IMG/VR virus record: IMGVR_UViG_3300006929_000018 | Span: 1-55,527 of that record | Source of the DNA: a virus | Lineage: Duplodnaviria > Caudoviricetes | Strand: one strand, 5' to 3' | Length of the DNA stretch: 55,527 nt | Part shown: positions 3,225 to 37,809 of the stretch, one piece after another | Layout of the letters: each line of letters starts with the position of its first letter | How positions within the stretch are numbered: position 1 is the stretch's first letter | Program-made: the position numbers and the translations under genes | Notes under the pieces: generated by a model | What the model was told of the DNA's origin: nothing | Database searches by the model: none | Seen by the model: only the letters and a program-made list of their open reading frames with translations

Positions 3225-4100
3225 ATGAAAACAACGGAACAAATTCTTAATGAAAACGGACTTAACTGGAATGTAACTAAAGAAAAACTAATGTATGCTG
3301 GTGAGTGTACTCCTAGCGCTAACAATGGATTACATGACACTGATTACTACGGTATAGTTCGTGAAGATACAGGTGAAGTATTTACTACTGTTAAAAAAGG
3401 ATATACTCCTACGCAAAACTCTAAAATTATAGACACTATGCAATCAATCGCAGGTAATAATGATTTAATAATTACTAAAGCTTTAGCGATAAATGGTGGT
3501 AGAAAAATATTAGTACAAATGCAAAAACCTGACAATACAGTATATATAGGTGGTCAAGAGACCAAACAATATGTATATGCTATCAACTCTCATGATGGGA
3601 CATCAGCTTTAAAGTTTGGGTTTATGAATCAAGTAGTATATTGTTCAAATCAATTTGCTTGGATGAGTAACAATGGACTTAAAGGATATGTTCATAAACA
3701 ATCTATCCAAGATAAAGTAACTAATTTACCAGAGATTCTTAACTTTGATGGACAAGAAGAAAGAATAGCTCAATTACACGAGATGAGTATGACGCCTATA
3801 GGACATAAAGAAATCACTGGATTACTAGATTATTTAACTGGTATAGACTCTACAGTCCCTAATTGGGCAGGAGATATAAGTACAAGAAAGAATAATATTA
3901 GAGGAGATTTATATATGTCTGTTACTAAAGAGACTAATAGAGTAGGAATGAATAAATGGGGGCTCTTTAACGGAGTAACTATGTATACATCTCATAGTAA
4001 ATCTATACCTAATAGAGAAAATGGCAGAGAAGAATCTGTTTATACTGGCTCAGGTCAGAAAATGAATGATAATGCATTTAGTTGGTTATCAAATAATTAA
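3225..4100 (+). CDS. DUF932/TIGR03299-like phage protein
   Basis: GLNWNV, VREDTG, YTPTQN, NSHDGT, VYCSNQ and WGLFNGVT motifs typical of the family. Confidence 0.8.
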   Translation: MKTTEQILNENGLNWNVTKEKLMYAGECTPSANNGLHDTDYYGIVREDTGEVFTTVKKGYTPTQNSKIIDTMQSIAGNNDLIITKALAINGGRKILVQMQKPDNTVYIGGQETKQYVYAINSHDGTSALKFGFMNQVVYCSNQFAWMSNNGLKGYVHKQSIQDKVTNLPEILNFDGQEERIAQLHEMSMTPIGHKEITGLLDYLTGIDSTVPNWAGDISTRKNNIRGDLYMSVTKETNRVGMNKWGLFNGVTMYTSHSKSIPNRENGREESVYTGSGQKMNDNAFSWLSNN

Positions 4101-8969: not shown

Positions 8970-9341
8970 ATGATGGTAAATGAAATTTTCATAGCGGGGA
9001 ATGTCCCTTCTAGTAAGAATGGTAAAAGATGGACTGGGAAATATCTTATACATTCTAAGACTACAATGAATTATATCAAAGAATCTAAAGAAGATTACGT
9101 AAGTAATAGGAAAAAGTTTCTGGATATGATTGAGGGTAAACAACCTCCCTATAAGATTTCATTTACTTTTCATAGAAGTACAAGAAGAAAATTTGATTAT
9201 ATAAATCCAGCACAAACTGTACAGGATTTAATGGTAAAATACCAATGGATAGAAGATGATAATTGTGAATTTATCAGACCATTTTTTGACGAATATACAT
9301 ACGACAAAGAAAATCCAGGTGTAACAATTAAAATATTATGA
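8970..9341 (+). CDS. RusA-like Holliday junction resolvase
   Basis: GNVPSSKN, RRKFDYIN, QDLMV..WIEDDN, ENPGV.I.I. Confidence 0.75.
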   Translation: MMVNEIFIAGNVPSSKNGKRWTGKYLIHSKTTMNYIKESKEDYVSNRKKFLDMIEGKQPPYKISFTFHRSTRRKFDYINPAQTVQDLMVKYQWIEDDNCEFIRPFFDEYTYDKENPGVTIKIL

Positions 9342-9778
9342 ATGTATCAAGTATAAACGATTTTGTAGAAAAATATTGTGAACTACATGAAATAACACAA
9401 AATAAATTATTTTCATCAAGTAGACATAGGCCTTTAGTAGAAAAAAGAATGATATTAGCTTACTTTTTACGTAAAGGTACAAACATGAGTTGGAATGCAA
9501 TAGGTAAATTAATGAACAAAAACCATGCTTCTATGATACACTATGTGAATAAAATAGAAACATTAATCACAATATATCCATATTTAAAAAGAATGTTTGA
9601 TTCAACTAACGAATTATATTCTCAGTTTGAACACACTTTTAAAGAGCATAGTAATATATATAAAGAACTATTAATAGAAAATCAAAAATTAAAAGATAGA
9701 ATTAATAGAAATATAGATATGATAAATACAATAATAGAAGAAGATAAAAAAGGTTATTTAATACAAATTGAACAATAA
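9338..9778 (+). CDS. DnaA C-terminal (domain IV)-like HTH protein
   Basis: SSSRHRPLVEKRMI.AY..R....SWNAIGKLMNKNHASMIH. Confidence 0.75.
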   Translation: MNVSSINDFVEKYCELHEITQNKLFSSSRHRPLVEKRMILAYFLRKGTNMSWNAIGKLMNKNHASMIHYVNKIETLITIYPYLKRMFDSTNELYSQFEHTFKEHSNIYKELLIENQKLKDRINRNIDMINTIIEEDKKGYLIQIEQ

Positions 9779-11264: not shown

Positions 11265-11395
11265 TGGCGGTAAAATCATTTGTATTTAAAAAAGTAAAAC
11301 AGAAAAAAAGACCTGGCGTTCACGCTAAGTCTAAAACTTCTAAGTTAAAACAAAGTATTAATTATAAAAAGAAATATCGTGGACAAGGAAGATAA
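11264..11395 (+). CDS. small basic peptide ending KKYRGQGR (43 aa)
   Basis: Manual translation; TAATG coupling. Confidence 0.6.
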   Translation: MAVKSFVFKKVKQKKRPGVHAKSKTSKLKQSINYKKKYRGQGR

Positions 11396-11678
11396 ACATA
11401 ATAAATATTATTATGAATTAGATAGAAATTTACCATATGTAGATTCTACAAACAATTTAGATAATGATAAACAAGACAAAAGAATACCTGACTATTACAA
11501 AGGCAAAGAAGGTTACGAAGCTAGAAAGGTTTGTGATAACTTTGATTTATCTTACCATTGTGGCACAGCAGTAACTTATATTCTGCGAGCTTATAGAAAA
11601 CATGATACACCAGTAGACTGTATTAAAAAAGCTATAGCTCATCTAGAATTTGAATTAGAAAAATTAAAAAATAAATAA
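11379..11678 (+). CDS. DUF3310-like protein
   Basis: PDYYKG, GTAVTYILRA.RK, DCIKKAIAHLE. Confidence 0.7.
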   Translation: MDKEDKHNKYYYELDRNLPYVDSTNNLDNDKQDKRIPDYYKGKEGYEARKVCDNFDLSYHCGTAVTYILRAYRKHDTPVDCIKKAIAHLEFELEKLKNK

Positions 11679-11679
11679 T

Positions 11680-11844
11680 ATGGAAATAACATTATCAATA
11701 TTTACATACGCGATAGGATTTGTTTCAGGAATGTATGTGTTATCACAACTAGAAAGTGGGATAAAATCTAGAATAAGAAACAATGAAACATTAAAGAACT
11801 TAAAGAAATACGATAAAAAAAATGATAATTCACAAAGTAAATAG
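11680..11844 (+). CDS. small membrane-anchored protein (54 aa)
   Basis: Manual translation MEITLSIFTYAIGFVSGMYVL... Confidence 0.5.
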   Translation: MEITLSIFTYAIGFVSGMYVLSQLESGIKSRIRNNETLKNLKKYDKKNDNSQSK

Positions 11845-12679
11845 AAAAACATTTACTATAAGACCCTCTGGGAGGAGTACAGATTTTATTTCTCCTAGTT
11901 TTGGACACGGTTGTTTATACAACTGCTCTTATTGTTATATGAAACGCAATAAACCTTACGGCCTTAGTATAGCAAAAAACACAGAAGATATACTTACTAG
12001 CATAAATAATCATGTAACTTTTGACGATACAATTAAACCAAATCAAACACACCCAGAATACATAACGTATGATATAAGTTGTAATGAAGACTTTGCTTTA
12101 CACGCTAAACATCATGAGTGGGAGAAAATATTTACATTTTTTAAAGACCATCCTAAAGCTATGGGTAGTTTTGCTACTAAGTATGTAAATCCTGAATTAA
12201 TTAAATTTGACCCTAAAGGTAAAATACGTATACGATTTAGTTTAATACCACAACATAAGGCAGATATACACGAACCACACACATCTAAAATTATAGACAG
12301 AATAAAAGCAATTGACGCTTTTATAGATTCTGGTTACGATGTTCATGTAAACTTTAGTCCTGTAATAGTATATGACGGATGGTTAAATGATTATAGGTTT
12401 TTGTTTAATATGTTAAATGATTATGTAGATTATAAAAACCAAGTCTTAGCAGAAGTTATATTTCTTACACATAATTTTAAAAGACATAAGTTTAATTTAA
12501 CTAGTAATCCTGAATCAGAAAAAGACTTGTGGGTTCCGCATATACAAGAAGATAAAATATCACAATATGGTGGTGTTAACACAAGATATAATCATAAGCT
12601 AAAACGTGAGTATATAAATCAATTTATAGATTTACACAATAGTATTATACCTTGGAACACAATAAGATATATATTTTAA
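11822..12679 (+). CDS. spore photoproduct lyase-like radical SAM enzyme
   Basis: GCLYNCSYCY (CxxxCxxC), DISCNED, FATK, RIRFS, EPHTS...RI.A, GY.V..NFSPVI, all matching SplB motifs. Confidence 0.85.
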   Translation: MIIHKVNRKTFTIRPSGRSTDFISPSFGHGCLYNCSYCYMKRNKPYGLSIAKNTEDILTSINNHVTFDDTIKPNQTHPEYITYDISCNEDFALHAKHHEWEKIFTFFKDHPKAMGSFATKYVNPELIKFDPKGKIRIRFSLIPQHKADIHEPHTSKIIDRIKAIDAFIDSGYDVHVNFSPVIVYDGWLNDYRFLFNMLNDYVDYKNQVLAEVIFLTHNFKRHKFNLTSNPESEKDLWVPHIQEDKISQYGGVNTRYNHKLKREYINQFIDLHNSIIPWNTIRYIF

Positions 12680-12693
12680 TAAAATAAATAAAT

Positions 12694-13512
12694 ATGATTA
12701 GTTATATAGGAGGTAAAAGCCGAATGGCTAAATGGATATCAGAATATATCCCAAAAGATATAGAATCCTACACAGAAGTGTTTGGAGGAGCTTTCTGGGT
12801 ATATATTAAAAGTGATGTACATACATTACCAAAATTAAAAAAAGTCGTTTATAATGACGTAAATAGGTTTATGGTTAATTTGTTCCAATGTTGTACAGAG
12901 CCATATTTCTTTAATAAACATATGGAAGAATCTGAAATCAAATCACAAAATGAAAAACTATTTTATGAATATCAAGAAGAAATAAAAAATACTTGTGATA
13001 TAGGTTTTAATGACTATTCATTTGACATGGCTATGAAATACGCTTACATAGCTACACAGGTATTTAGTGGTAGTAAAATTATGGAGTCTAAATATATAGA
13101 CCTTAAAGGTAAATATAATTCAAAATTTGATGCGTTTAGAAAAAGATTGATGAATCCTGATGTTATACAAAAATTGCACAAAATTACTAACTGTGAAAAT
13201 TTAGATTATACAGAATGTATTTCTAAATATGATGGAGTAGAAAGTTTCTTTTATGTAGACCCACCATATTGGAAAACTGAAAATTATTATTCTAATCATG
13301 ACTTTGATTCATTAGACCATGATACATTAGCTAAATGGTTACAGAATATAAGAGGTAAATTTGCACTATCTTATTATTATTTTGAAGAACTAGAACATAT
13401 GTATCCTAGAAAAGATTTCCGATGGGTGAGTAAAGAGTTTACAAAAGCTGCTGGAGCACAAAAAGGAAAGAAACAGAATAAAGGAGAAGAACTATTAATA
13501 ATGAATTACTAA
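12694..13512 (+). CDS. N6-adenine DNA methyltransferase (D12/Dam family)
   Basis: YIGGKS, EVFGGA, YND, YVDPPY, LSY, ELLIMNY. Confidence 0.92.
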   Translation: MISYIGGKSRMAKWISEYIPKDIESYTEVFGGAFWVYIKSDVHTLPKLKKVVYNDVNRFMVNLFQCCTEPYFFNKHMEESEIKSQNEKLFYEYQEEIKNTCDIGFNDYSFDMAMKYAYIATQVFSGSKIMESKYIDLKGKYNSKFDAFRKRLMNPDVIQKLHKITNCENLDYTECISKYDGVESFFYVDPPYWKTENYYSNHDFDSLDHDTLAKWLQNIRGKFALSYYYFEELEHMYPRKDFRWVSKEFTKAAGAQKGKKQNKGEELLIMNY

Positions 13513-25953: not shown

Positions 25954-28900
25954 TTATCTTATTATTGGTGATTCTTTTTCAGAACTACCACCATATATAA
26001 CTTTTCTAACTTCCTTATGTGTTTGACCAAATGGAGCTACTTCGTACTTTAATTCTGTTTCCCATTTTGGCGTTCCTTTCTCTGCTAGATAAGAATCTCT
26101 TTTTTGAGTTTCTCCACTTATAGCGTAATCTACAGTATTACCTATATTTTGAGCTGTTCCGAAAGACGTAGGTATTATTGTATAATTTATAAATCTGTCT
26201 ACATCCGTCATTACATTAATATCTTTATTTAACTTTTTTAAATGTCTTAAAACTATATCATCTTCACCATCATCGTCTAAAGCTAATATTAATAAAGAAA
26301 CTACACCAGCTAATCCTATACCCCTTATATAAGCTCCCATTTCTTTTTGTTGGTCCTCTCCAAGTTTGTCATATTCTTCTTTAAATGTAGCCATAGATAT
26401 ATCTCCATTAGTAAACCTACTCCATAAAGAAGATACATAACCACCAGCTGTTGTATAACTACCAGATTGAACTTCACCAAATCTATCTATATCACGCTGT
26501 TGGAATCTATCTCCCACCAATGTAAAATACCATTTTTTAAATTGTAAAGCAGCTCTACCTAAAGCGTAAGTACCCAACATTCTTCCGTCTAAAGCAGTGT
26601 ATCCCTCACCATGTAATGTAGATATTTTGTGATTTATCTGTCTAACTCTTTCTTGTGTAATTTCTCCTGAGCTATATTCTTCTTCTGTTAACATTCCCAA
26701 GAAAGCAGCTCCTTGTATATAATTTTCTGATTTATCCATAAAGAAAAACGACAATCTTTCTATCTTACCAAAAGCTCCTTTTTTATTATCTAAATGAACA
26801 AAATCACTAAAGCTATATTCTACTATTCTATGCTTTTTTAATATCTCTTGAGAATAGTTCCAATCTTGAAAATATCTTTTTTCTCCAACAACTAATTGTT
26901 TACCACCACGTTTACGGTACTCTTGATATTTACCAGCTAATATATTACCTACCGCGACCAACGGATTAAAACCTAAATATCTTAATGTAGTTAATCTAAC
27001 TAACCAATCTAATATCTTTTCTGCAGTATTAAGTTTTGGTCTTTTCTTTTCTAAGAAAGACTCTTTCCACCATCTTGTTAAATATTCGGCTGCATTTTTA
27101 TTACCATTTTCTTTATTAAACTGTATAATTGAATCTACTAACACCGACATGTTTTTCATTCCTACAAATGGATTTTCTTTTAGATTTATAGCATTACCAT
27201 AGTTATCTCTTTGTACGTCTCCATACTTAAATAAAGTACCTCTAATAAATTCTAATAGAGCTCCATTTAAATCCATAGACATGTGTTCAAATTCTGTAGC
27301 TTGTCTTCTTCTGTATTCTTCTATTAAAGCCTTGTCTGCTTCTGTAAGTTTGTCAGGAGATATTCCTTCTGCCATTTTTGATATAGCGTCACCGTCATTT
27401 AATAAGGCGTCTATTTCTGCGTCAGTTAAAACTATTTTACTACCGTCTTCATTTATACCCTGTTGTTTTAATTTCGTAGCTCTACGTTTCAGTTTTTCTA
27501 ATATAGCAGCGTTTGCTATTCTTTCTTTTGCTGTACCAGCACTTTTTAAGTATGTTCTTATGCTACTTAAAGACATTAGAACTTCTGTTCCGTTTATATC
27601 ATGATATAATTTAACATTTTCTACATTCATGTTTTTACCCATTCTCATATCATATAATCCAAATAATCCTTCTTTGCTAAACATTTCTAAATCACCCATC
27701 TGTATATTTTTTACAGCGTCTATTCTTTCTTGCCTTATAATGTTTCCAAACTTATCGTTCATTTCTCTATACAAATTCCAATAATCGTACTCTTCTTTAG
27801 TAATCTCACTTTTTTTATTTTTCATTTCTTCTGCAGAAATTAAAGTTATTCTACCTCCTTTTTCTCTATTGGTTATGTTACCATATAAAGTTTCATATCT
27901 TTCTGTCATATTCATTTGACCCTTTATCTTCTCTATAAGACCAATACCTTTAAGTTTAGATTCTATAAGTTTATCATGAGCTGCGTTTATTTCATTCGTA
28001 TACATTCTGTATCTAGATAAATAATTGTAGTAATTTTTTTCTATTTCATTTATCATATATTGTATCTCAGGTCTTCTAGATGTCATATTGTTAGACCCCA
28101 TCCATTTTCTTAACCATGATATATCTTCATTTTTAGAAGGCTTAACAAAATCATAGTTTTGTAAATCTGCTTTTTCTTGTAAATACTTTGTCTGTTTTTC
28201 AAATGCTCTTTGTGCTATTTCTTTTCTAATAATATGTTTAGCTCTATTAGTAGCAGAACTATCTAATCTATCTAACTTAGTCATAGCGTCATATAGATAT
28301 TCATCATCATGTTTTTGTAAAGATTCTAAATTTAATTTATCCGCTGTTAAATCTTCTGCTATTTCGTAATCTATTACATATTGAGAATACCTATCTTTTA
28401 ACCTTTTATAAATTAAACTATCTTTTTTGATAGAACCCATTGTAATACCCTTGTCTTCTACCCATTCTTTAAAAGATAATAAATCATTACTATCCATATA
28501 TTCTTTACCTTCACTTGTATATCTATTAAAAGCTTTTTTAGCTCTTTTAACTTCATCCGCAGCAGAAACATCCTGTATTTTATATATGTATATAGGTTTT
28601 TCTCCTTTTATAAAAGCTTTGTGATATTTATTTCCATTTTCTTTTATATCATCATAATTATCATATCCTTCACTACGAGCCCAAGAATCAAGATTTTTTA
28701 TGTCATCTATACTATTTCTTTTTATAGGAGGGCTAATACGTACCAGAGTATTTCCAGGTTTTATTAATTTAGTTATATCATTACCTGTATCATTATATGT
28801 ATTATAGCCATGACTAATAGTTTTTTTATTACCTGCTATTATAGCTTCTTCTTCTACAATATCTAGTGTCATTTTACCCACAACACCCTCTTCTTCTTTT

Positions 28901-31900
28901 ATTTGTTTACTTCTTTCTTCTAACTGTCTATCTATATTTATATCTCTTTGTTTTTCTTCCTGTATTCTTTCTTCTATTGATTCAATAAAACCTATAACAT
29001 CAACATTAGGACTTATTCTTTCTTGCATAGAATTTATAGTATTATCCATATATTGATTTATTTTACCTATAAACTTATCAGAAAATAAAGGAGATAAAGA
29101 ATCTTCTTTGAATCCAAATTCAAAAAACTTATATTCAATATTAAACATTAAAATTTGTTCTCTTTCTTTCAAATCATTAAATCCATTTCTCATTTGTTGT
29201 ATTTCTGATTCTGTAATAAATTCATTTAATAGTTGTTTATTTAAAACTACTTGTTCACGACCCTTACTATTTTTTACAATTTTCATAGATTTAAAAAACG
29301 TATTGTCTGGATTGGACTTCATAACCTTTTTTAATTCTTGTATTAATCTACTTTTAGTTAAATTAGGATATATAATATCTGTCATATTTTCTAACATTTT
29401 ATCAGATATTATTTTGTTGATTATTTTATTTTTTTGGTCCTTACTTTTGTATAGTAATCCTTTTTTATTATTATAAACTTCTTCCATTATGGACTGCATA
29501 TAAGGAGTGTATCTTATATCTGTTACAGAAGCTCTATTTAACATCGTTTCAAATAAACCTAAAGCGTGTGTCATAATAGGATTTTCAAAAAGTCCTCCCA
29601 TATTTCTTTTTTCGTCTCCTCTTATGTCATTAATCTTTTTTACTACACTCATCAATTCTAAAGGATTCTTTTCTATAGATTGATGTACTGTAAACGCTTT
29701 ACCTACAGGTTGAGCTACATCTTTATTAAATTGTTCTAAGTTATATATAAGACTTAATGTTTTGATTTGTTCTTTTGATAAAATAGCTTTTTCCCTCATT
29801 CCTTCTGCTTCAAATTCATCATATATAAATTCAACTGTCTCAGGAGATTGCTTGCTTAACCAATTAATAAAGTCTGAACTCTTTTTACCAGGTTTCTTTT
29901 TTGTTCCTAGTAATTGTTGTATAGTGGAATCAGAAGAAACAAATCTTTTACCATCTGTTGTTTTCTGCCATTGGAAATACTTTTGTACAATATCAGATGT
30001 GTATATATCTTTACATTCTTGTAAAGAATATCCTAATCTTCTAAGCATTACAAATCCTGCTACTGATTGTTCGTTTAGTCCTAGTCTTTCTGCATACTGC
30101 CATTTAGCGTTGTCTAATACTATATTAAGTAACTGAGCTAATCCAAACCAATTTCCTACTCCGTTTTCAGCGTTTCTATCGTCATAAAATTTATCCACTT
30201 TTCTTCCGTTAATATCTACTTCAAAACCTAGTTCTACGCCACTAACAGAAAATATATTCAAACTTCTTTGTAAAGCAGCTACAATACCTACAAGAGCTTT
30301 TGTAGGAACATTTTCTTTAAATGTTTTAGAATCTCCATGAGGAGTTAGTTGAGAGTCTGTTTTAGGTCTTTCTTTTCCAATTACCTTTTCTACATCTTTT
30401 TGAAAGTCTATATTTGCTGTAATTTCTTTTCTTACATCTTCTCTACTAACTAAGTCTACATATAAATCAAAAAATTCATTACTATCATTTCTCCAATCAT
30501 CAGATGATTTTATTTCATTTTTGTTGTATTTGAAGTTCATATGTACTGAGTCTCCATCTAAGTCAGCTCCCCAATATGCGGATACTTCGGCTGGTATGGT
30601 TATTTTAGACGTAGGACTTCCTTTTAATTGTCCATGAAATCCTTTTACTATAAATACACTTGTACTTACTTTACCATGCGAAGGTATTCTAGTTCCTAAA
30701 AATAAGTCACCTTCTTTAACTCCTTGTTTTTGTAAATAACCAGGCACGTAAGCTTCTGAAACTACAACCTTTTTACCATCTATAGTTCTTTCTTCAAAAG
30801 CTTTTAATCCCATCCCCAATGAAGACGATTGATAAGCTATACTCCCTTTTGTGTACATTTTAGTTCCTTTCTTAGCTACCCTACCATTAGCTATAGAATT
30901 GTACACAGAGTTCATTGCAGGGTATCTACCGTCTAGATTGCCAAATATTGAAGCAACTAACTGACCAAATACCGCTGGGTCAACAGAACCTTCAAATTTT
31001 TCCATTTCTTTAAATACATCTTTAGTTTTGGCGTCAGGAGAAGTAATCATACCTTCATCTAAATTTCTTTCTTTGTTAGCTTTTTCCATTACATTTTTAC
31101 GAAGCTCTAACATTCTATTTAGAATTTCAAAGTCTTTAGGACTATTCATATTGTTTGCTAAATTGTAAAACAATTGTGACGGAAAATATCTTTCTTCTTT
31201 TTGTTTGTCTAACTCTAATTGTATACCTAATCCCTTTCCACTTAAACCATTAAACTCCCTGTTTATATCATTTTCTTCACCTATCATAAACAGTTCATCC
31301 TGACTTTTTAATATATTGTCTAAATTCTCTTTATTTAAATTCCTAACATCATATATATATTTGCTGCCTTTTTTTCCGTTAATTCCATCAAACCAAAGTT
31401 TAGCTGAAGATTCAGAAGCAGCTATTACTAAGTGACCATGAGAAAACATATCAACATATTCTAAATTTGGTATAGTAGCAGCGGCTATACTTGTGTTTCT
31501 TTCTCTTAATATATTCGCTATGTTTTTATGTATTTCACTTGTAGCTTCCATATCAGGAGTTAACACTTGTACAGCAAATTTTAGATACGTAGTATTACCA
31601 TCTTCTCCTCTATAATTATATACAAACTTATATACACCTCCTACATCTTTAACTCCACCATATTTTTCTGTAATTATTTTTGCTTGTTGTGGTAATATGT
31701 ACCCCGCTGCATCATTCTCTATCCAAGCTTCCACTCCTTTAGGTATTTCGTTTTCTGTATATATATTACCTTCTTTATCTACATAATAATCTTTTGTAAT
31801 AACAGGTTCAAATGATGTTGTGTGGTCGTATGTTGTATGAGAAGCAATAGTACCAGCTAATCTTTTTATATAATCTACTTCATCCTTCGCTTGTTTGTGG

Positions 31901-34900
31901 TCATACCCTAACAACTGTTGAGCCATAAATTTATTAGCTATATAACTTGTTAAAAAATTCTTACGCTGCTCTACTGTACTGTTATTCCAAGATGTATTGT
32001 TTTCTAACAAATCAGGATTTTTAAAAAGTTCTAATAGAAATTTATCATATATTTTATCTATTTCTTTAATTTTATAATTACCCTGTTTATCTTTTATAAC
32101 AGTATAAGGAAAAACCTTGTCTCCTTTTATATATTTGTCTTTTAACGCTGGATTATTATATAATGTTCCTAAAACTTTATTTCTACTAACTACATCTGTT
32201 ATAGCTATAGATTTAACATAATATCTTCTACTTTTATCAGAAAATGTTCCAATTACTTGGTCGTATAATACCGACTCTCCTGCTTTTGATTTTTGCACAG
32301 CATTAAGATAATTATACATATCTATAGTCATCATTTCCGCTGGGTCTATTTGTGTCATAGTTTTAGCTCCGTTGTCCCATCTTTCTACACTATCTTGACC
32401 TGGATAATATCTATACATACCAGAATGAACAGTTATGTCAAATGGATTATCCATTATATCTCCAGTTTGACCACCTATTAATATATCCGCCTCATATTTC
32501 TCTTGTATCATTAATGAAAAAATATTATTTTTTGGGTTGAATATACTTTTCTTTCTTTTGTCTATATTTAATATTTTTTCTACCGAATCATAAGCTTGGT
32601 TATGTAGAGCGTTATTATTATTAAATATACTAATACCGTCACCTGTTACGTTGTCTACAATAGACAAATAGTTCATAGGTCTAGACAACACTAATACTTC
32701 ACTTAAAACTTGTTTAAAAGATTGCAAATTGTTTTCAAAATAATCATAAGCTTTTGCCCTTTCGTTTACTTTAGTTGTCCATTTTTCTGTATTTTTATTA
32801 AACAACATAAACTTACTATTTTTAAGACTTATTCCTTGTAACCCTGATTGTCTTTCAAAAAATACATCAGTTAAATACATAGGCTTTCCATTCCATATTA
32901 TAGTTTCGTTTAATATAGCGTCTATATCTATTCTTTCAAATCCGTCTGTATTTTTAAATAATGTTTCTATTATAGCTACTACACCATCATTTTTAGAAAT
33001 TGAACTAAAATTATTTTCACTTACTTTATTATATATATTTTCTATCTCTGCTCTTTTTTGTTGTTTTTCCGCTTCTGTAGAATTAGTCCAACTGTCTATC
33101 ATTCTAGTTATAACACTTTGTTCTGTTGTTCTGCTTAATAAAACCCTATCTTGCCACAAATATTCTCCAGTATCTTTGATAAGTAATCTATCTCCCTGTA
33201 ATCTTTCAATTACCATACTTTGAAATATATTAGATATTTGTAATAATTTAGCGTCTGTATAGTTTTGATTTTCAAATACTTTATTATCTAATATAGATAA
33301 CATTTGCTGTATTTCAACAGAGTTACTTTCTCTAACCATTCGTATAAAATCTTCTGGATTTCTTTTAACGGATTTAGCTAAACTATATAATTGATACATT
33401 AATTTTTTTCTTTCAAAAGGAGATTCAGATTTTACATTATATATTTCCGCTACAGCTTTGAAAAAATTAGTTAAAGTTTTAGGCATATTCATGTTCTTTA
33501 ACTCTTCGTTATGTAAATCCGCTTGATTTAAATCTGTCTCATCGTTAAGCTCCTCCTCTTCAAATTGTATCATTAATTGTTTACCTTCCTCGGTTTCTAA
33601 TCCTATTCCTTTTTCTTTTACTATAGCTTCCAATAATAATTTATCACTATTAGCTAAATTCTTTTTATATTTAGGATTAGTCGTATATAATACCGCTCGT
33701 ATATATTGTTTTAATTGTTCTATCTTTTTATCTTCTAGAGATTCTGAATTTATTAATCCAGATTTATTTATTCTTTTTATTACATTATCCACTATTTGTT
33801 CGTCTTCCAAACCTTTGCCTAATTCATAATTTAAAAACGTATGAACTAACGCATATTCTGTAGCTTTTCTAAACGCTGCTTTTTTAGCTCTTTTTATTTC
33901 TCCATAACCTGAGTTTTTGATAACACCTTTTTTACCGAAGTTTAAGAGTACGTGTTTCATTGCAGCTTCTAATGTAAGGGTAGGTAATACATCGTCTACT
34001 TTATTTAAAAATTCCCTAGCTTCTTCATCCGTAGCAAGGTTTTTAGTTTCTTTATAAAATTTAACTAAATCTTCTTCTAATTGTTTTTGTACTTTACTGT
34101 CTTTTATAATTGCGTTTAACGAACCATAACTATTAGCTTCTAATGACCTTACGAAAGATTCTTCCAGTAAGTGTTTCTGTTTCAAATTGCTTAATTTTTT
34201 AGCTATAGCTCCACCCCTTCTTTTAGTAGTAAGTTGTGTAATAAGAGACACATATAACTCTGATGTTTTTGTATCGTCTACACCTTCATTTTTTACAATA
34301 TTTGTTATAATATCTTTTATATCACTTTGTATGTTATTGTTGTTATTTATAATACCTTTCTGTAATTCTACGAAAGTTCCTACTGTCATTACAGTTCCGT
34401 CTATATCAATTAATGTTAATTCTGGATATTGTATAGAAGTTAAATCAAATATATCTGACTTTACTAAAAGTTTGTTAATTCTTTTGATTAATGGTGATTC
34501 CTCTTGCATTCTATACCAAACGTGACCACCTTCATGTATTATATCTGTGCCTACTGTACCACCTTCTTTTATAAGTAATGTACTACCTATAGCTAATGAA
34601 ACAGCTTCATTTCCAAAAGCATCTAAAAGTTGCCCACTAATTACATACGCTTGGTCTGCTGGTATTAGATTTTTTTCTAATAGTTTTTGCAGCATAACAT
34701 ATTCTCCTAACCCAGCGTTTGTATATACTTCATGGTTTCTTCTAGGTACAGCTCCATCATATTTTTTGAATGTATTATCTTCACTAGGCTTAGTTATCTT
34801 ATCTTTTATTTTAGATTTAATTTTTTTAAAACCTGATACAATCTTTTCTTTTGTTTCTTTGACTTTTTCTTTTACTGTTGTAGTTTTCTTAGCTCTTGTT

Positions 34901-37809
34901 ATTTGCTCGTCTTTAACATCATAATCCCTATATTCAATAGTACCTATTACTTGTCCATCTACTTCAGCTACCATTTTATATTGGTATAAATCATTATTGA
35001 ATTGAAAAAATAATTGTCCGTCTATTTTAATTACATCTTTTCCACCTTCTTTTGGTAAAATTAATTTTATTTTGACTGGTATATTATCTTGATTTATATA
35101 TCTAGCTAAGAAATTATTTATAGTTTCGTTACCTACTTTACCCTCTCTATTGTAGAATTTTATTTTACTACCTTTACTATCTGTAATAGTATAACTACTA
35201 CCTCCTTTTGTAGGTACAATAGATTTAGCTCCTACTATAATTTCACCACCTTTTTTAGCTATAGTTTCGGCTAATTTTTTTACTTTTTCTAATATTGGAA
35301 TTTTTTTACGAACCTTTTCAGACTTAGGTTCTTCAGGTAATTTTAATTGTTTTTGTTCAGTTTCTGCTTTTTTTTTACCTGTATCTTGCTTTGATGACCA
35401 GTCTGCCCAAGACTCTGTTATAGTTCCGTCTTGTTTTCCTTTAAGATATTCTTCTGCTTTTTTATAAACGTCAGGTGTAACTCCAGCCATACCTTTCATT
35501 TTCTTTTTCAGTTCATTAAAAGCTCTTTTTATTTGTTGTGGAGTTTTTGATTTCTTTAGTATTCTTTCAGTTCTATCTACAGCGTCAGATACATTTTTTT
35601 CAACAACTTTTGTTCTTTTTCCTGTTAAATCTTGTACCGCTTCTACTCCTTTTTTACCTACACTTTTTACCGTTTTAACTCCCTTTTTAGCCACTCCTTT
35701 TATGGCGTCAATAGCTTTACCTAAAAATCCTTTAGAGTCTTGTTCTTTTTGATATTGTTTATATTCCTGTACAGTCATGCCAGCTTCTTTAGCTTGTTTA
35801 GCTGTCATTCTTTCTTGACCTTTTTGTGTGTATTGTTCGTACTCTTCTGATGTAAGTCTTTCTTTATATCTTTTGTCTACCTTTCCTTCTTTTGTTAAAA
35901 TTTCTTCTTTTTGTAAATAAAAATTTTCTATTTCGTTTTTAAGTTTTTTTTCTTCAACTTGTAATTCATTTAGAGCAGATTTCTCTTCATTATTTATTTT
36001 GTTAATAACAGATTGTTGTTTTTCTTTAGAAACATTTTGTTTTACCTTTTTTCTTTTTTCTTCATAGATTGACTTTACTTGTTCTTGTTGTGAATTATTT
36101 CTTGTTAATCTATTTTCTCTGTAAAAAACCTGTTTTGCTCCAGATTCAGTAAGAGTTGTGTTAACAGAATGTTTATCATAATTTTCTACCATTCTGTCTA
36201 TAGTCTTAAAAATATTGTCTCTACCTTCTTCTGTTAACTTTCCTTCTTCTACTTGTTTTTCTATAACTCCTTTCATAACAGTTCCATCACCATTATGATT
36301 CCACACGTGGTCCGCAACTAATTCATCAGATAGATTTTGATAATCTCTCATTACTTCTGGATTGTATGTTCCGTCTTCGTTTAGTAATCTTAACTGTTCT
36401 GTTTTTTGTAATTTTTCATCTAACATTTTAGACCTCTCTGCTTGAGCATCTACAGCTCCTCTAGTACCACCCATTGCCGCTCCTAAACCTACAGATGTCC
36501 AGAATATATCTCTAGCTTCTTTTGTAAATGTACCGTCAGCATTTGTTATCCAGTCTGTATAAGATTCGTAATCTTTACCTTGTTCTTCTTGTAAGTTTGC
36601 GTATTTTATCCATTCTTGATATGTTTCTTGTAATCCTTCTGTATATCCCTCTACACCCGCATAAGCTCCCGCTGTAGGTAATACAGTCCCAGCTCTTCCT
36701 AATAATGGTTTTATGATACCAGCTATACTTTTGCTAAATCCTGCTGGTTCTGGACTAAGTCTAGCTATTTTACTCATTTTAAAGTTTTTACCAAGGCCTC
36801 CAAATAATATACCATATTGCACAACATCTAACGCAGCCCATTTGGCATTATCCCAAACAACTCCACTAGCAGCATTTGCAGCTTGTTCTTTACTTAATCC
36901 CATTTTTATACCCTGACTATATGTTTCTCCTCCTAAGTAAGCTCCTTCAAATAAATTGGCTGTTATACCCCCTCCAATTGCTCCTGTCCATCTTTCAGCT
37001 CCTTTTGTTAGTACCATTCCTTTTTTACCAGCATCTATTGCGATATGTTTAGCTAGTCCACTTCCTCCTACTCTGTTAGTACCATATAATAATTTTGCAA
37101 CTTTAGAACCCTGTTGTGTTGTAGCAACCATTCTTCCTGCTTGACCTATTCTTCCTGTCTTAGCTAATCCTATAAGTGCTCTACCCCCAAATCTAGTAGC
37201 AGCAAAAGCTCCACCTCCATACGGTATCATAAATGAAGCCGCGTATGGTAATAACCTAGCAACTTTATGTGACCAAAATTCTGCCTTAAACATATCTGTA
37301 AATGTAAGGTCTTGTAAATCTTCTGATACAATTAATAAATTTTCATTTTGAAACTCTTGGCCTTTTTTCTTTAACCATTCTCCCACTGATGTATTAGGGT
37401 CTGGGTCATTAGGACTTACTAAAGCAGATAGATAATCTATTGTATCTCCTGTTCCATACACTAAATCTCCCCATCCCGCTCTTAAGGCTCTACCTGTGTC
37501 TGATACAAAATCACCCATAACTGCATCAGGGTCGGTCATATATAAACTTCCTGTTTCTACGTCACCTCTCATAGGGTCTACTAAACCTTGTGTAAGGTTT
37601 TCTCTCATTTGACCTTGAGCAACGCTTCTATAATAGTTGTCTATATTTTGTTGTTGTTGCACTTCTTGTTCACTAGGACCTAGTAAACTTTGAAATATTT
37701 CTGATGTACTCTGTGCGTTGTCATATCCCTGTATAGCTTCTGATGGTAATTGTACATTTGGGTCTAAATCACCACTAGGTAAATATGTTTCTTCGTATTT
37801 TTCAGCCAT
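25954..37809 (-). CDS. giant virion RNA polymerase polyprotein (crAss-like two-barrel RNAP)
   Basis: GADLDGD (DLDGD at 30550-30564), upstream RIPSHG, NDAAGYI, YKFVY, YLKFA and ESSAK motifs; HEGGH zincin motif at 34522-34536. Confidence 0.88.
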   Translation of the reverse strand: MAEKYEETYLPSGDLDPNVQLPSEAIQGYDNAQSTSEIFQSLLGPSEQEVQQQQNIDNYYRSVAQGQMRENLTQGLVDPMRGDVETGSLYMTDPDAVMGDFVSDTGRALRAGWGDLVYGTGDTIDYLSALVSPNDPDPNTSVGEWLKKKGQEFQNENLLIVSEDLQDLTFTDMFKAEFWSHKVARLLPYAASFMIPYGGGAFAATRFGGRALIGLAKTGRIGQAGRMVATTQQGSKVAKLLYGTNRVGGSGLAKHIAIDAGKKGMVLTKGAERWTGAIGGGITANLFEGAYLGGETYSQGIKMGLSKEQAANAASGVVWDNAKWAALDVVQYGILFGGLGKNFKMSKIARLSPEPAGFSKSIAGIIKPLLGRAGTVLPTAGAYAGVEGYTEGLQETYQEWIKYANLQEEQGKDYESYTDWITNADGTFTKEARDIFWTSVGLGAAMGGTRGAVDAQAERSKMLDEKLQKTEQLRLLNEDGTYNPEVMRDYQNLSDELVADHVWNHNGDGTVMKGVIEKQVEEGKLTEEGRDNIFKTIDRMVENYDKHSVNTTLTESGAKQVFYRENRLTRNNSQQEQVKSIYEEKRKKVKQNVSKEKQQSVINKINNEEKSALNELQVEEKKLKNEIENFYLQKEEILTKEGKVDKRYKERLTSEEYEQYTQKGQERMTAKQAKEAGMTVQEYKQYQKEQDSKGFLGKAIDAIKGVAKKGVKTVKSVGKKGVEAVQDLTGKRTKVVEKNVSDAVDRTERILKKSKTPQQIKRAFNELKKKMKGMAGVTPDVYKKAEEYLKGKQDGTITESWADWSSKQDTGKKKAETEQKQLKLPEEPKSEKVRKKIPILEKVKKLAETIAKKGGEIIVGAKSIVPTKGGSSYTITDSKGSKIKFYNREGKVGNETINNFLARYINQDNIPVKIKLILPKEGGKDVIKIDGQLFFQFNNDLYQYKMVAEVDGQVIGTIEYRDYDVKDEQITRAKKTTTVKEKVKETKEKIVSGFKKIKSKIKDKITKPSEDNTFKKYDGAVPRRNHEVYTNAGLGEYVMLQKLLEKNLIPADQAYVISGQLLDAFGNEAVSLAIGSTLLIKEGGTVGTDIIHEGGHVWYRMQEESPLIKRINKLLVKSDIFDLTSIQYPELTLIDIDGTVMTVGTFVELQKGIINNNNNIQSDIKDIITNIVKNEGVDDTKTSELYVSLITQLTTKRRGGAIAKKLSNLKQKHLLEESFVRSLEANSYGSLNAIIKDSKVQKQLEEDLVKFYKETKNLATDEEAREFLNKVDDVLPTLTLEAAMKHVLLNFGKKGVIKNSGYGEIKRAKKAAFRKATEYALVHTFLNYELGKGLEDEQIVDNVIKRINKSGLINSESLEDKKIEQLKQYIRAVLYTTNPKYKKNLANSDKLLLEAIVKEKGIGLETEEGKQLMIQFEEEELNDETDLNQADLHNEELKNMNMPKTLTNFFKAVAEIYNVKSESPFERKKLMYQLYSLAKSVKRNPEDFIRMVRESNSVEIQQMLSILDNKVFENQNYTDAKLLQISNIFQSMVIERLQGDRLLIKDTGEYLWQDRVLLSRTTEQSVITRMIDSWTNSTEAEKQQKRAEIENIYNKVSENNFSSISKNDGVVAIIETLFKNTDGFERIDIDAILNETIIWNGKPMYLTDVFFERQSGLQGISLKNSKFMLFNKNTEKWTTKVNERAKAYDYFENNLQSFKQVLSEVLVLSRPMNYLSIVDNVTGDGISIFNNNNALHNQAYDSVEKILNIDKRKKSIFNPKNNIFSLMIQEKYEADILIGGQTGDIMDNPFDITVHSGMYRYYPGQDSVERWDNGAKTMTQIDPAEMMTIDMYNYLNAVQKSKAGESVLYDQVIGTFSDKSRRYYVKSIAITDVVSRNKVLGTLYNNPALKDKYIKGDKVFPYTVIKDKQGNYKIKEIDKIYDKFLLELFKNPDLLENNTSWNNSTVEQRKNFLTSYIANKFMAQQLLGYDHKQAKDEVDYIKRLAGTIASHTTYDHTTSFEPVITKDYYVDKEGNIYTENEIPKGVEAWIENDAAGYILPQQAKIITEKYGGVKDVGGVYKFVYNYRGEDGNTTYLKFAVQVLTPDMEATSEIHKNIANILRERNTSIAAATIPNLEYVDMFSHGHLVIAASESSAKLWFDGINGKKGSKYIYDVRNLNKENLDNILKSQDELFMIGEENDINREFNGLSGKGLGIQLELDKQKEERYFPSQLFYNLANNMNSPKDFEILNRMLELRKNVMEKANKERNLDEGMITSPDAKTKDVFKEMEKFEGSVDPAVFGQLVASIFGNLDGRYPAMNSVYNSIANGRVAKKGTKMYTKGSIAYQSSSLGMGLKAFEERTIDGKKVVVSEAYVPGYLQKQGVKEGDLFLGTRIPSHGKVSTSVFIVKGFHGQLKGSPTSKITIPAEVSAYWGADLDGDSVHMNFKYNKNEIKSSDDWRNDSNEFFDLYVDLVSREDVRKEITANIDFQKDVEKVIGKERPKTDSQLTPHGDSKTFKENVPTKALVGIVAALQRSLNIFSVSGVELGFEVDINGRKVDKFYDDRNAENGVGNWFGLAQLLNIVLDNAKWQYAERLGLNEQSVAGFVMLRRLGYSLQECKDIYTSDIVQKYFQWQKTTDGKRFVSSDSTIQQLLGTKKKPGKKSSDFINWLSKQSPETVEFIYDEFEAEGMREKAILSKEQIKTLSLIYNLEQFNKDVAQPVGKAFTVHQSIEKNPLELMSVVKKINDIRGDEKRNMGGLFENPIMTHALGLFETMLNRASVTDIRYTPYMQSIMEEVYNNKKGLLYKSKDQKNKIINKIISDKMLENMTDIIYPNLTKSRLIQELKKVMKSNPDNTFFKSMKIVKNSKGREQVVLNKQLLNEFITESEIQQMRNGFNDLKEREQILMFNIEYKFFEFGFKEDSLSPLFSDKFIGKINQYMDNTINSMQERISPNVDVIGFIESIEERIQEEKQRDINIDRQLEERSKQIKEEEGVVGKMTLDIVEEEAIIAGNKKTISHGYNTYNDTGNDITKLIKPGNTLVRISPPIKRNSIDDIKNLDSWARSEGYDNYDDIKENGNKYHKAFIKGEKPIYIYKIQDVSAADEVKRAKKAFNRYTSEGKEYMDSNDLLSFKEWVEDKGITMGSIKKDSLIYKRLKDRYSQYVIDYEIAEDLTADKLNLESLQKHDDEYLYDAMTKLDRLDSSATNRAKHIIRKEIAQRAFEKQTKYLQEKADLQNYDFVKPSKNEDISWLRKWMGSNNMTSRRPEIQYMINEIEKNYYNYLSRYRMYTNEINAAHDKLIESKLKGIGLIEKIKGQMNMTERYETLYGNITNREKGGRITLISAEEMKNKKSEITKEEYDYWNLYREMNDKFGNIIRQERIDAVKNIQMGDLEMFSKEGLFGLYDMRMGKNMNVENVKLYHDINGTEVLMSLSSIRTYLKSAGTAKERIANAAILEKLKRRATKLKQQGINEDGSKIVLTDAEIDALLNDGDAISKMAEGISPDKLTEADKALIEEYRRRQATEFEHMSMDLNGALLEFIRGTLFKYGDVQRDNYGNAINLKENPFVGMKNMSVLVDSIIQFNKENGNKNAAEYLTRWWKESFLEKKRPKLNTAEKILDWLVRLTTLRYLGFNPLVAVGNILAGKYQEYRKRGGKQLVVGEKRYFQDWNYSQEILKKHRIVEYSFSDFVHLDNKKGAFGKIERLSFFFMDKSENYIQGAAFLGMLTEEEYSSGEITQERVRQINHKISTLHGEGYTALDGRMLGTYALGRAALQFKKWYFTLVGDRFQQRDIDRFGEVQSGSYTTAGGYVSSLWSRFTNGDISMATFKEEYDKLGEDQQKEMGAYIRGIGLAGVVSLLILALDDDGEDDIVLRHLKKLNKDINVMTDVDRFINYTIIPTSFGTAQNIGNTVDYAISGETQKRDSYLAEKGTPKWETELKYEVAPFGQTHKEVRKVIYGGSSEKESPIIR

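Follow-up and report, generated by a model that had tools for sequence, protein, structure and literature searches.

The DNA analyzed here (the window) is a stretch of 55,527 nucleotides that makes up IMG/VR virus record IMGVR_UViG_3300006929_000018 (Duplodnaviria; Caudoviricetes), a linear record with a CheckV completeness of 82. An open reading frame (ORF) on the + strand begins with the ATG at 11822, ends with the stop codon at 12679, and encodes a protein of 285 amino acids, precisely where a preliminary description of the window had placed an enzyme resembling spore photoproduct lyase (SPL). The protein was annotated from its ORF, the Pfam family PF20903, an AlphaFold2 model and Foldseek as a short-form member of the SPL family of radical S-adenosylmethionine (SAM) enzymes and is called phage SPL below. 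Upstream of the gene are those for DnaB, Erf, RusA, a protein with a DnaA-type helix-turn-helix (HTH), and an ExoVIII-like DUF3799 nuclease, followed by a pair of small genes and an ORF of 54 aa. On the downstream side are the gene for the DNA methylase Dam and, in convergent orientation, that for an Mre11-like exonuclease. Contigs from other marine metagenome runs repeat the gene together with both of its junctions, and the one in X6 record 20 spans 11634-13437 with 2 differences. The gene is neither a chance ORF nor a chimera, because independent contigs cross both junctions and because of the similarity scores given below. No RNA datasets containing the stretch are listed.

Phage SPL is matched by PF20903, the Pfam SPL family, with an E value of 1.1e-24 and 87.4 bits, which is over the gathering threshold of 27. 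The alignment places residues 8-284 of the protein on positions 65-337 of the 338 in the profile and is collinear to the C-terminal end. The best-scoring curated family is TIGR03886, with 315.7 bits and an E value of 3.7e-94 over profile positions 62-346 of 346. The general radical SAM profile PF04055 gives 17 bits, below 29.5, and PHROGs contains no family for the protein. An E value of 7e-12 was obtained for the HMMER alignment of phage SPL with SPL of G. thermodenitrificans (Gt; PDB 4fhc), and a profile built from the family alignment covers residues 94-366 of the 4fhc chain with an E value of 1e-29. The chain numbering of 4fhc equals the native numbering plus 27, as counted on the HMMER alignment.

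The AlphaFold2 model of phage SPL, calculated with a 53-sequence alignment, has a mean pLDDT of 97.0 and a pTM of 0.93. A Foldseek search with this model returned six SPL entries, including 4fhe and 4fhc, with TMq values of 0.87-0.88, rmsd values of 2.2-2.3 Å, and an E value of 1.5e-19. The next match is RlmN with a TMq of 0.51. The partial TIM barrel and the CxxxCxxC loop of the radical SAM superfamily are present in the model, and RlmN, PFL-AE and HydE all trail the SPL entries. Among the BFVD structures nothing appears above a TMq of 0.67, the best match being a 469-aa viral protein. By these sequence and fold comparisons, phage SPL is an SPL-family enzyme and not SplB proper.

Residue correspondence was taken from two sources, the alignment of the family profile to 4fhc and a MAFFT alignment, made separately, that includes Bacillus and Brevibacillus SplB. 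In Gt SPL, the cluster is held by C90, C94, and C97, the aromatic residue within the motif is Y96, the H atom is donated by C140, and Y98 has been proposed as the relay (Benjdia 2012, PMC3467042). The radical SAM motif of phage SPL, C31-x3-C35-x-Y37-C38-Y39 (11912-11938, + strand), aligns with Gt C90/C94/Y96/C97/Y98, with CLYNCSYCY lying on CMGHCHYCY in the HMMER alignment to 4fhc. The Y98F mutant (4k9r) has F opposite Y39. These five residues are found in 201 of 202 sequences of the close clade, and the remaining sequence is gapped there. The segment DISCNED (residues 84-90; 12071-12091, + strand) lies on Gt EAACTSD in the HMMER, profile, and MAFFT alignments, so that C87 is opposite the H-donor Cys140 and D90 is opposite the SAM-binding Asp143. 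C87 is present in 202/202 close-clade sequences.

The residues expected to contact the thymines of the lesion are also retained. The S16-G17-R18-S19 loop (11867-11878, + strand) corresponds to Gt S76-K77-P78-S79 in the HMMER alignment and is at least 98% conserved in the close clade; the backbone of the S76-S79 loop holds the 3'-thymine in Gt SPL (PMC3467042). The segment from K120-Y121 to R138 and S140 (12179-12241, + strand) was placed by the profile alignment. Here K120 and Y121 correspond to Gt K174 and Y175 (SAM carboxylate and cluster environment), R138 to R193, which binds O4 of the dihydrothymine, and S140 to S195. Among the family representatives K120 is found in 101/108, R138 in 99/105, and S140 in 93/106. 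Residue E211 (12452-12454, + strand) is the counterpart of the dihydrothymine binder Gt E268 in both the profile and the MAFFT alignments, and Glu occupies this position in 95/105 representatives. A β-hairpin (residues 242-256; 12545-12589, + strand) is formed in the AlphaFold2 model by strands 242-246 and 252-256. The alignments place its tip, Q248-Y249, on Gt R304-Y305, and R255-Y256 stands at the end of the second strand. Residue Y283 (12668-12670, + strand) aligns with Gt Y339, which binds O4/N3 of the dihydrothymine, and Tyr is found here in 90/94 representatives. Identical counterparts are thus present for the Gt cluster cysteines, Y96, Y98, C140, D143, K174, Y175, R193, S195, E268, Y305, and Y339. 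Across the 202 close-clade sequences, 133 of the 285 positions are at least 98% conserved.

The preliminary description had noted a CxxxCxxC motif followed by Tyr, had aligned DISCNED with the Bacillus segment that carries the H-donor Cys, had called the downstream motifs collinear, and had concluded that the catalytic residues are retained. Each of these points is borne out: the cluster cysteines, the H-donor Cys, and the relay Tyr are all aligned with those of Gt SPL, and the collinearity extends over the PF20903 match and over chain residues 94-366 of 4fhc. The dihydrothymine-binding residues and the hairpin Tyr, which were not mentioned there, are kept as well. The SplB-like identity proposed at the same time stands in part. 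The protein is SPL-like with its catalytic apparatus kept; its N-terminal domain is missing, and the branch in which it falls is separate and mostly viral.

The missing portion is the N-terminal α/β domain of SPL, about 60 residues that form a four-stranded sheet and three helices. The alignments of phage SPL begin at profile position 65-76, or at chain residue 94-95, and positions 1-61 of TIGR03886 are unmatched. A split gene with the N-terminal domain encoded upstream was considered and rejected, since the upstream ORF encodes a 54-aa peptide unrelated to SPL and the frame is open only to 11810. Compared with the SplB/SPL enzymes (Gt SPL, PDB 4FHC/4FHD/4FHE/4FHF/4FHG/4K9R/4RH0; B. subtilis SplB; TIGR04070), phage SPL has the same fold (TMq 0.88), the CxxxCxYCY motif, the H-donor Cys at the Bacillus position (Gt C140, Bs C141), the SAM-binding D/K/S residues, the dihydrothymine-binding R/E/Y triad, and a β-hairpin with a Tyr at its tip. 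It differs in having only about 21-27% sequence identity, no counterparts of R273 and K309, no splA partner, and a phage of non-sporulating hosts as its carrier.

The sites of R273 and K309, the proposed binders of the intra-lesion phosphate in Gt SPL, were compared across the family. R273 is opposite T216 in the profile alignment or, shifted, opposite N218 in the MAFFT alignment, in which H217 lies on the SPL His. K309 is opposite N253. Lys is found at position 253 in 5 of 38 alignment rows (two SplB, Granulicella, P0215, and P0127). Arg is found at position 255 in 32 of the 33 rows without Lys253 versus one of the five rows with it (P0127), and on the tree described below R255 arises at the node that loses the Lys at the K309 site. 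The positive charge may therefore have been shifted by two residues along the same strand face, with R255 as a stand-in for K309.

In the word-indexed protein search, 4,649 candidates yielded 4,530 proteins at E ≤ 0.001. The best 120 of these 4,530 relatives are 71-100% identical to phage SPL and mostly 284-287 aa long, and Tara or further marine sources account for many of them. When the 50%-identity representatives were searched exhaustively, 667 passed E ≤ 0.001 and 85 passed E ≤ 1e-30; those of full length are mostly 278-318 aa, and a few have 324-388 aa. Ten representatives were scanned with NCBIfam, and two exceed the TIGR03886 cut-off, namely P0142 (566.6 bits, profile positions 2-346) and P0168 (465.2 bits), both of which are long forms. 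A further relative, the 451-aa metagenomic protein P0122, has a DUF4326 domain (E 2.8e-10) ahead of a short-form SPL that occupies residues 152-451 and is 58% identical to phage SPL; it represents a natural fusion or else two genes joined in gene calling.

A quick IQ-TREE phylogeny of 59 rows was rooted on two SplB sequences; it has long branches and composition warnings and was made without an approximately unbiased (AU) test. Granulicella and P0265 are basal in this tree, followed by a TIGR03886 clade that contains P0142, D. deserti, Streptomyces, and Aureimonas (support by the Shimodaira-Hasegawa-like approximate likelihood ratio test, SH-aLRT, of 95). The sister of this clade comprises 51 rows, 48 of them short forms, with an SH-aLRT of 82 (placement support 82-92), and phage SPL falls within a clade of 41 rows with an SH-aLRT of 99. 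The short form looks like a derived radiation beside TIGR03886 and not a fragment of SplB. The TIGR03886 members (D. deserti Deide_3p02150, D. gobiensis DGo_PA0134, and proteins of Streptomyces, Aureimonas, and Methylobacterium) are 37-42% identical to phage SPL, are its sister group on the tree, and have in common with it T216-H217, R255-Y256, and the C-terminal RY(I/A)F. They differ in possessing profile positions 1-61 and in having Glu or Thr at the H-donor site, where phage SPL has Cys.

The Glu or Thr at this site was seen in five TIGR03886 proteins: P0142, P0168, and those of D. deserti, Streptomyces, and Aureimonas. P0142 and P0168 are over the TIGR03886 cut-off, and the records of the remaining three carry the family name. 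Three of the four aligned TIGR03886 members have a Cys at position 279 instead. The H donor may thus be located differently among members, as it is between Bacillus and Clostridium SPL. Among the family representatives, Cys279 appears in 6 of the 7 full-length Glu-type proteins, and a Cys at position 210, beside the substrate-binding Glu, is seen in 19 of 56 full-length proteins. Covariation of Cys87 with Tyr39 was also considered and is weak, with Tyr in 41/45 Cys-type versus 27/41 non-Cys representatives.

Phage SPL is carried by a virus that can be assigned by one of its structural proteins. The 1,699-aa protein encoded at 46279-51378 (− strand) is about 25% identical to the crAss-like "stabilization/virion structural protein" in 47 records, and its matches include cr116_1, Kolpuevirus, Bacteroides phages, and Cellulophaga phage phi14:2. 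Because this protein resembles its crAss-like and phi14:2 counterparts, the record is classified as a marine crAss-like phage. Close relatives of phage SPL were found on 473 contigs in IMG/VR, the best 80 of which are 73-83% identical. The three nearest Atlas clusters are 100%, 95%, and 63% viral. The GenBank phage records gave one weak match (24.7% identity) among 50,697. A scan of one genome per species (185,579 species) gave one close copy, on a contig of a metagenome-assembled genome (MAG) with the gene order of viral locus L006, and two distant Leptospira matches of 27-29% identity. A host-derived auxiliary metabolic gene (AMG) taken from a sequenced bacterium was rejected on this outcome of a scan that detects near relatives only. 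As judged from these searches, the short-form radiation is large and almost purely viral.

The gene is a single-gene presence/absence cassette at 11831-12683 (+ strand), and the flanks of this segment, 11481-11830 and 12684-12899, abut in L090. Gaps of the same kind, with boundaries that differ by tens of bases, are found in L097, L101, L091, and L093. The junction alignment contains no clean flanking repeat at the cassette ends, and a flanking direct repeat was rejected because the apparent 18-nt overlap in L090 consists only of similar A-rich leaders and ATGAT starts. Contigs of four DNA runs, which drop rare variants, contain no joint that skips the whole gene. A sample unbiased with respect to SPL was obtained by fetching 33 loci via the 136-aa gene two genes upstream; 28 of these reach past the insertion site. 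The SPL gene is present in 8 of the 28 syntenic relatives and absent from 20. The median dN/dS of the window versus 76 relatives is 0.133 in 73 usable pairs (dN 0.18; dS 1.32, which is near saturation). The gene is an optional cassette in a replication/recombination block, as follows from its presence in 8/28 and from the abutting flanks, and it is under purifying selection. The 54-aa ORF just upstream (11680-11844, + strand) has a hydrophobic N-terminus and overlaps the start of the SPL gene by 23 nt, and in the relatives without SPL the stretch homologous to this ORF extends to the start codon of Dam.

The neighborhood was surveyed in 83 related loci and the window, in which the longest non-overlapping ORFs of at least 50 aa were called crudely and then clustered. 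The SPL gene occurs in at least six arrangements over the 83 related loci and has no conserved partner gene. Its annotated neighbors include DnaB-type and DEAD helicases, PolB, AAA_24, ExoVIII-like, 5'-3' exonuclease, and Mre11-like proteins, together with DUF932, a DUF2201 metallopeptidase/vWA protein, and DUF1064. Varied neighbors of the replication, recombination, and repair type and the lack of a fixed partner fit a repair enzyme that acts as one protein.

By analogy with the characterized lyases, the most likely function of phage SPL would be a stand-alone, light-independent reversal of the spore photoproduct (SP) or an SP-like thymine dimer, an assignment favored with somewhat better than even confidence. 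The findings suggest that some phages can do without light in repairing a thymine cross-link. On the observed fold, residues, conservation, context, and distribution, a mechanism can be drawn by homology to Gt SPL, in which the substrate, the chemistry, and the timing are the inferred parts. The protein would act on its own as an SPL-type radical SAM lyase for DNA repair; it has no N-terminal domain and is encoded by an optional cassette in a marine crAss-like phage. A [4Fe-4S] cluster bound to C31, C35, and C38 would cleave SAM reductively, and the β-hairpin with Y249 at its tip would flip the thymine-thymine lesion from the duplex into the opening of the barrel. The 5'-dihydrothymine would be held by R138, E211, and Y283 and the 3'-thymine by the S16-S19 loop. 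The 5'-deoxyadenosyl radical would abstract the H from C6, the methylene bridge would then break, and the thiyl radical would be relayed via Y39 (and Y37). Once the phage has infected its host, the predicted role is to reverse SP, or a thymine dimer that closely resembles it, directly and in the dark in the phage DNA, and the gene would be a niche-dependent fitness gene.

Phage-borne repair of UV damage has a precedent in T4 endonuclease V (DenV), a glycosylase/AP lyase that acts on cyclobutane pyrimidine dimers (CPDs) and is brought by the phage to repair its own UV-damaged genome after injection. Phage SPL resembles DenV in this concept; its chemistry and fold are unrelated. Neither a photolyase nor a Pyr_excise domain (T4-endoV type) was found in the record, a provisional result for a record that is 82% complete.

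The cellular relatives also bear on a role in UV repair. The nearest named plasmid homologues are 36.8-41.5% identical over 98% of the query and are annotated as "SPL family protein". They are from Deinococcus (6 records), Methylobacterium (2), Aureimonas, Roseomonas, Streptomyces, Nonomuraea, and Kitasatospora. In the plasmid search, identity falls to 24-27% for the splB of Bacillus and Clostridium. In a Streptomyces sp. NBC_00184 plasmid (L120, 1-2355), the TIGR03886-type gene is directly downstream of a cryptochrome/photolyase gene, and in plasmid 3 of D. deserti (L089, 2567-4855), it is close to ddrOP3. The D. gobiensis genome paper places the homologue in the two desert species and reports its absence from D. 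radiodurans and D. geothermalis (PMC3314630). UVC induces an "SPL family protein" in the non-sporulating Curtobacterium aetherium, which the authors link to the A-DNA that desiccation produces (PMC12029717). The photolyase and ddrOP3 context, the distribution in desert species, and the induction by UVC suggest a UV-repair role for the sister family TIGR03886.

Several observations weigh against the assignment of phage SPL as a lyase for SP or an SP-like dimer. The protein is under the TIGR03886 cut-off (315.7 versus 437.55 bits) and under the equivalog cut-off of TIGR04070 for SplB (84.8 versus 400 bits, E 5.1e-24). Neither of the proposed phosphate binders R273 and K309 is kept. The H-donor site is Cys in only 51 of 101 family representatives, with Glu in 27 and other residues in 23. 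No Cys is found at position 87, 210, or 279 in 12 of the 56 full-length representatives (44 have one), so that a rule of alternative Cys at 210 or 279 is only partial. From these two counts, the chemistry of the wider family may not be uniform. The gene is dispensable, being missing from 20 of the 28 syntenic relatives. In the literature no enzyme assay was found for the short-form branch or for TIGR03886 members. SP itself is known from dry or A-form DNA, with small acid-soluble proteins (SASPs) and calcium dipicolinate (Ca-DPA) (PMC3742179). Its formation in hydrated DNA is not known.

In a first alternative, the same radical machinery would repair a different UV or radical lesion and not classical SP. 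This alternative is considered unlikely. The lesion might be another pyrimidine dimer in hydrated or densely packed DNA, or a thymine-thymine link between strands or between non-adjacent thymines. Virions in the sea are hydrated, a state in which SP is not the lesion expected (PMC3742179). With R273 and K309 not kept and the N-terminal domain missing, the DNA backbone is perhaps held differently, and the short-form branch stands apart from SplB on the tree. Against this, R138, E211, Y283, the H-donor Cys87, and the relay Tyr are placed as in SPL, which argues for a saturated C5-C6 thymine with a methylene bridge as the substrate. The Arg255/Lys253 switch suggests, moreover, that the positive charge has been moved and not lost.

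In a second alternative, phage SPL would be a base-modification enzyme whose target is thymine or one of its derivatives. The precedent is gp53 of phage M6, a radical SAM enzyme that, according to Lee et al. 2021 (PMC8989533), is modeled on the SPL fold and isomerizes glycinyl-thymidine in DNA as part of thymidine hypermodification. Phage SPL is like gp53 in being a phage-encoded radical SAM enzyme with an SPL-type fold, and its predicted substrates would likewise be thymine derivatives in DNA. A DNA methylase gene adjoins the SPL gene, and the best BFVD structural match is the 469-aa viral protein at a TMq of 0.67. The direct comparison is less favorable: M6 gp53 (480 aa) has the Cys motif alone in common with phage SPL (BLASTP E 0.017 over 22 residues) and has no PF20903 match. 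The gp53 gene is clustered with genes for a PLP enzyme, a kinase, and a thymidylate-synthase homologue, whereas none of these was found around phage SPL. No match to the thymidylate-synthase family (PF00303), which is needed for 5-hydroxymethyldeoxyuridine (5-hmdU), was obtained in the 82%-complete record. In 20 neighbor proteins scanned with Pfam (19 neighbor families and the 99-aa gene upstream), neither a PLP enzyme nor a kinase domain was detected. No 5-hmdU-pathway genes were found among these 20 scanned neighbors, a scan in which aGPT-Pplase was not searched with its own model.

The base-modification alternative had been raised in the preliminary description on the strength of an adjacent methyltransferase and a DUF3310 gene, and neither carries it after the survey. 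Dam is directly downstream in only 5 of the 83 SPL loci, window included. It is present in 13 of the 28 syntenic relatives, and SPL is found alongside it in just one (L005), the other 12 being without SPL. A functional link between SPL and Dam was rejected on these two counts, and Dam appears incidental. The supposed DUF3310 neighbor is the 99-aa gene at 11379-11678 (+ strand), which has no Pfam match, to DUF3310 or to any other family, at E ≤ 0.1. Its C-terminal part alone matches PHROG "nucleotide kinase" entries (E 4e-7 to 8e-4). The family of this gene is the commonest upstream neighbor (29/82 loci) and is also present in the relatives without SPL. In addition, a protective modification would be expected to be fixed in the lineage, yet the SPL gene is missing in 20/28 close relatives. 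With Dam incidental and no hypermodification genes found, base modification is poorly supported and is regarded as improbable.

That the gene is a drifting accessory, currently functionless or acting on something other than DNA and maintained only by cassette shuffling, is very improbable: its distribution is patchy (8/28 syntenic relatives) and PHROGs lacks a family for it, but the dN/dS is about 0.13, 133/285 positions are near-invariant in 202 sequences, the reading frame is intact in close relatives (mostly 284-287 aa), and the lesion-binding residues and the hairpin are kept.

If the reversal of SP or an SP-like dimer is retained as the function of phage SPL, a broader reading can be offered, though tentatively and with a good deal of doubt. 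SP or a close chemical cousin would be a real and selectively important lesion in natural virus particles, with the virus-specific shortened SPL branch as its dark repair. An SP-type lesion could then arise in the densely packed capsid DNA of sunlit particles, as the preliminary description had suggested, or in frozen or aerosol-dried ones, and SPL chemistry would be ocean-wide and not a curiosity of endospores. No paper that joins "spore photoproduct" with capsid or phage DNA was found in the parts of the literature covered. Within the same limits, texts on photoproduct lyase with phage, virome, auxiliary metabolic genes, or crAss gave no description of the phage family.

SPL is the textbook repair enzyme that is bound to endospores and to one lesion of dry, A-form DNA. 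An apparently intact short SPL is now seen over hundreds of marine phage contigs and is near-absent from cultured-phage records. If the enzyme is active, either phage DNA suffers damage of the spore type in nature or the family has a new repair target, and both possibilities bear on the limit that sunlight sets on viral infectivity at sea. The presence/absence polymorphism among near-identical phages provides a natural experiment, and the 285-aa enzyme provides a minimal model for SPL biochemistry. The window adds the cassette boundaries, the 8/28 count, the Cys/Glu split versus TIGR03886 at the H-donor site, and the Lys253/Arg255 switch.

The replication block of the window also encodes a DUF932 protein at 3225-4100 (+ strand) and a small protein with a DnaA C-terminal HTH domain at 9338-9778 (+ strand). 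Other phage backbones also have DUF932 adjacent to the SPL gene (cluster 15). The structural block includes three giant ORFs on the − strand at 25954-37809 (3,951 aa), 37811-39997 (728 aa), and 40000-44259 (1,419 aa). None of the three has a Pfam family at E ≤ 0.001, and the 728-aa protein has one weak PHROG match. Their products may be virion-packaged or ejected proteins of a crAss-like phage.

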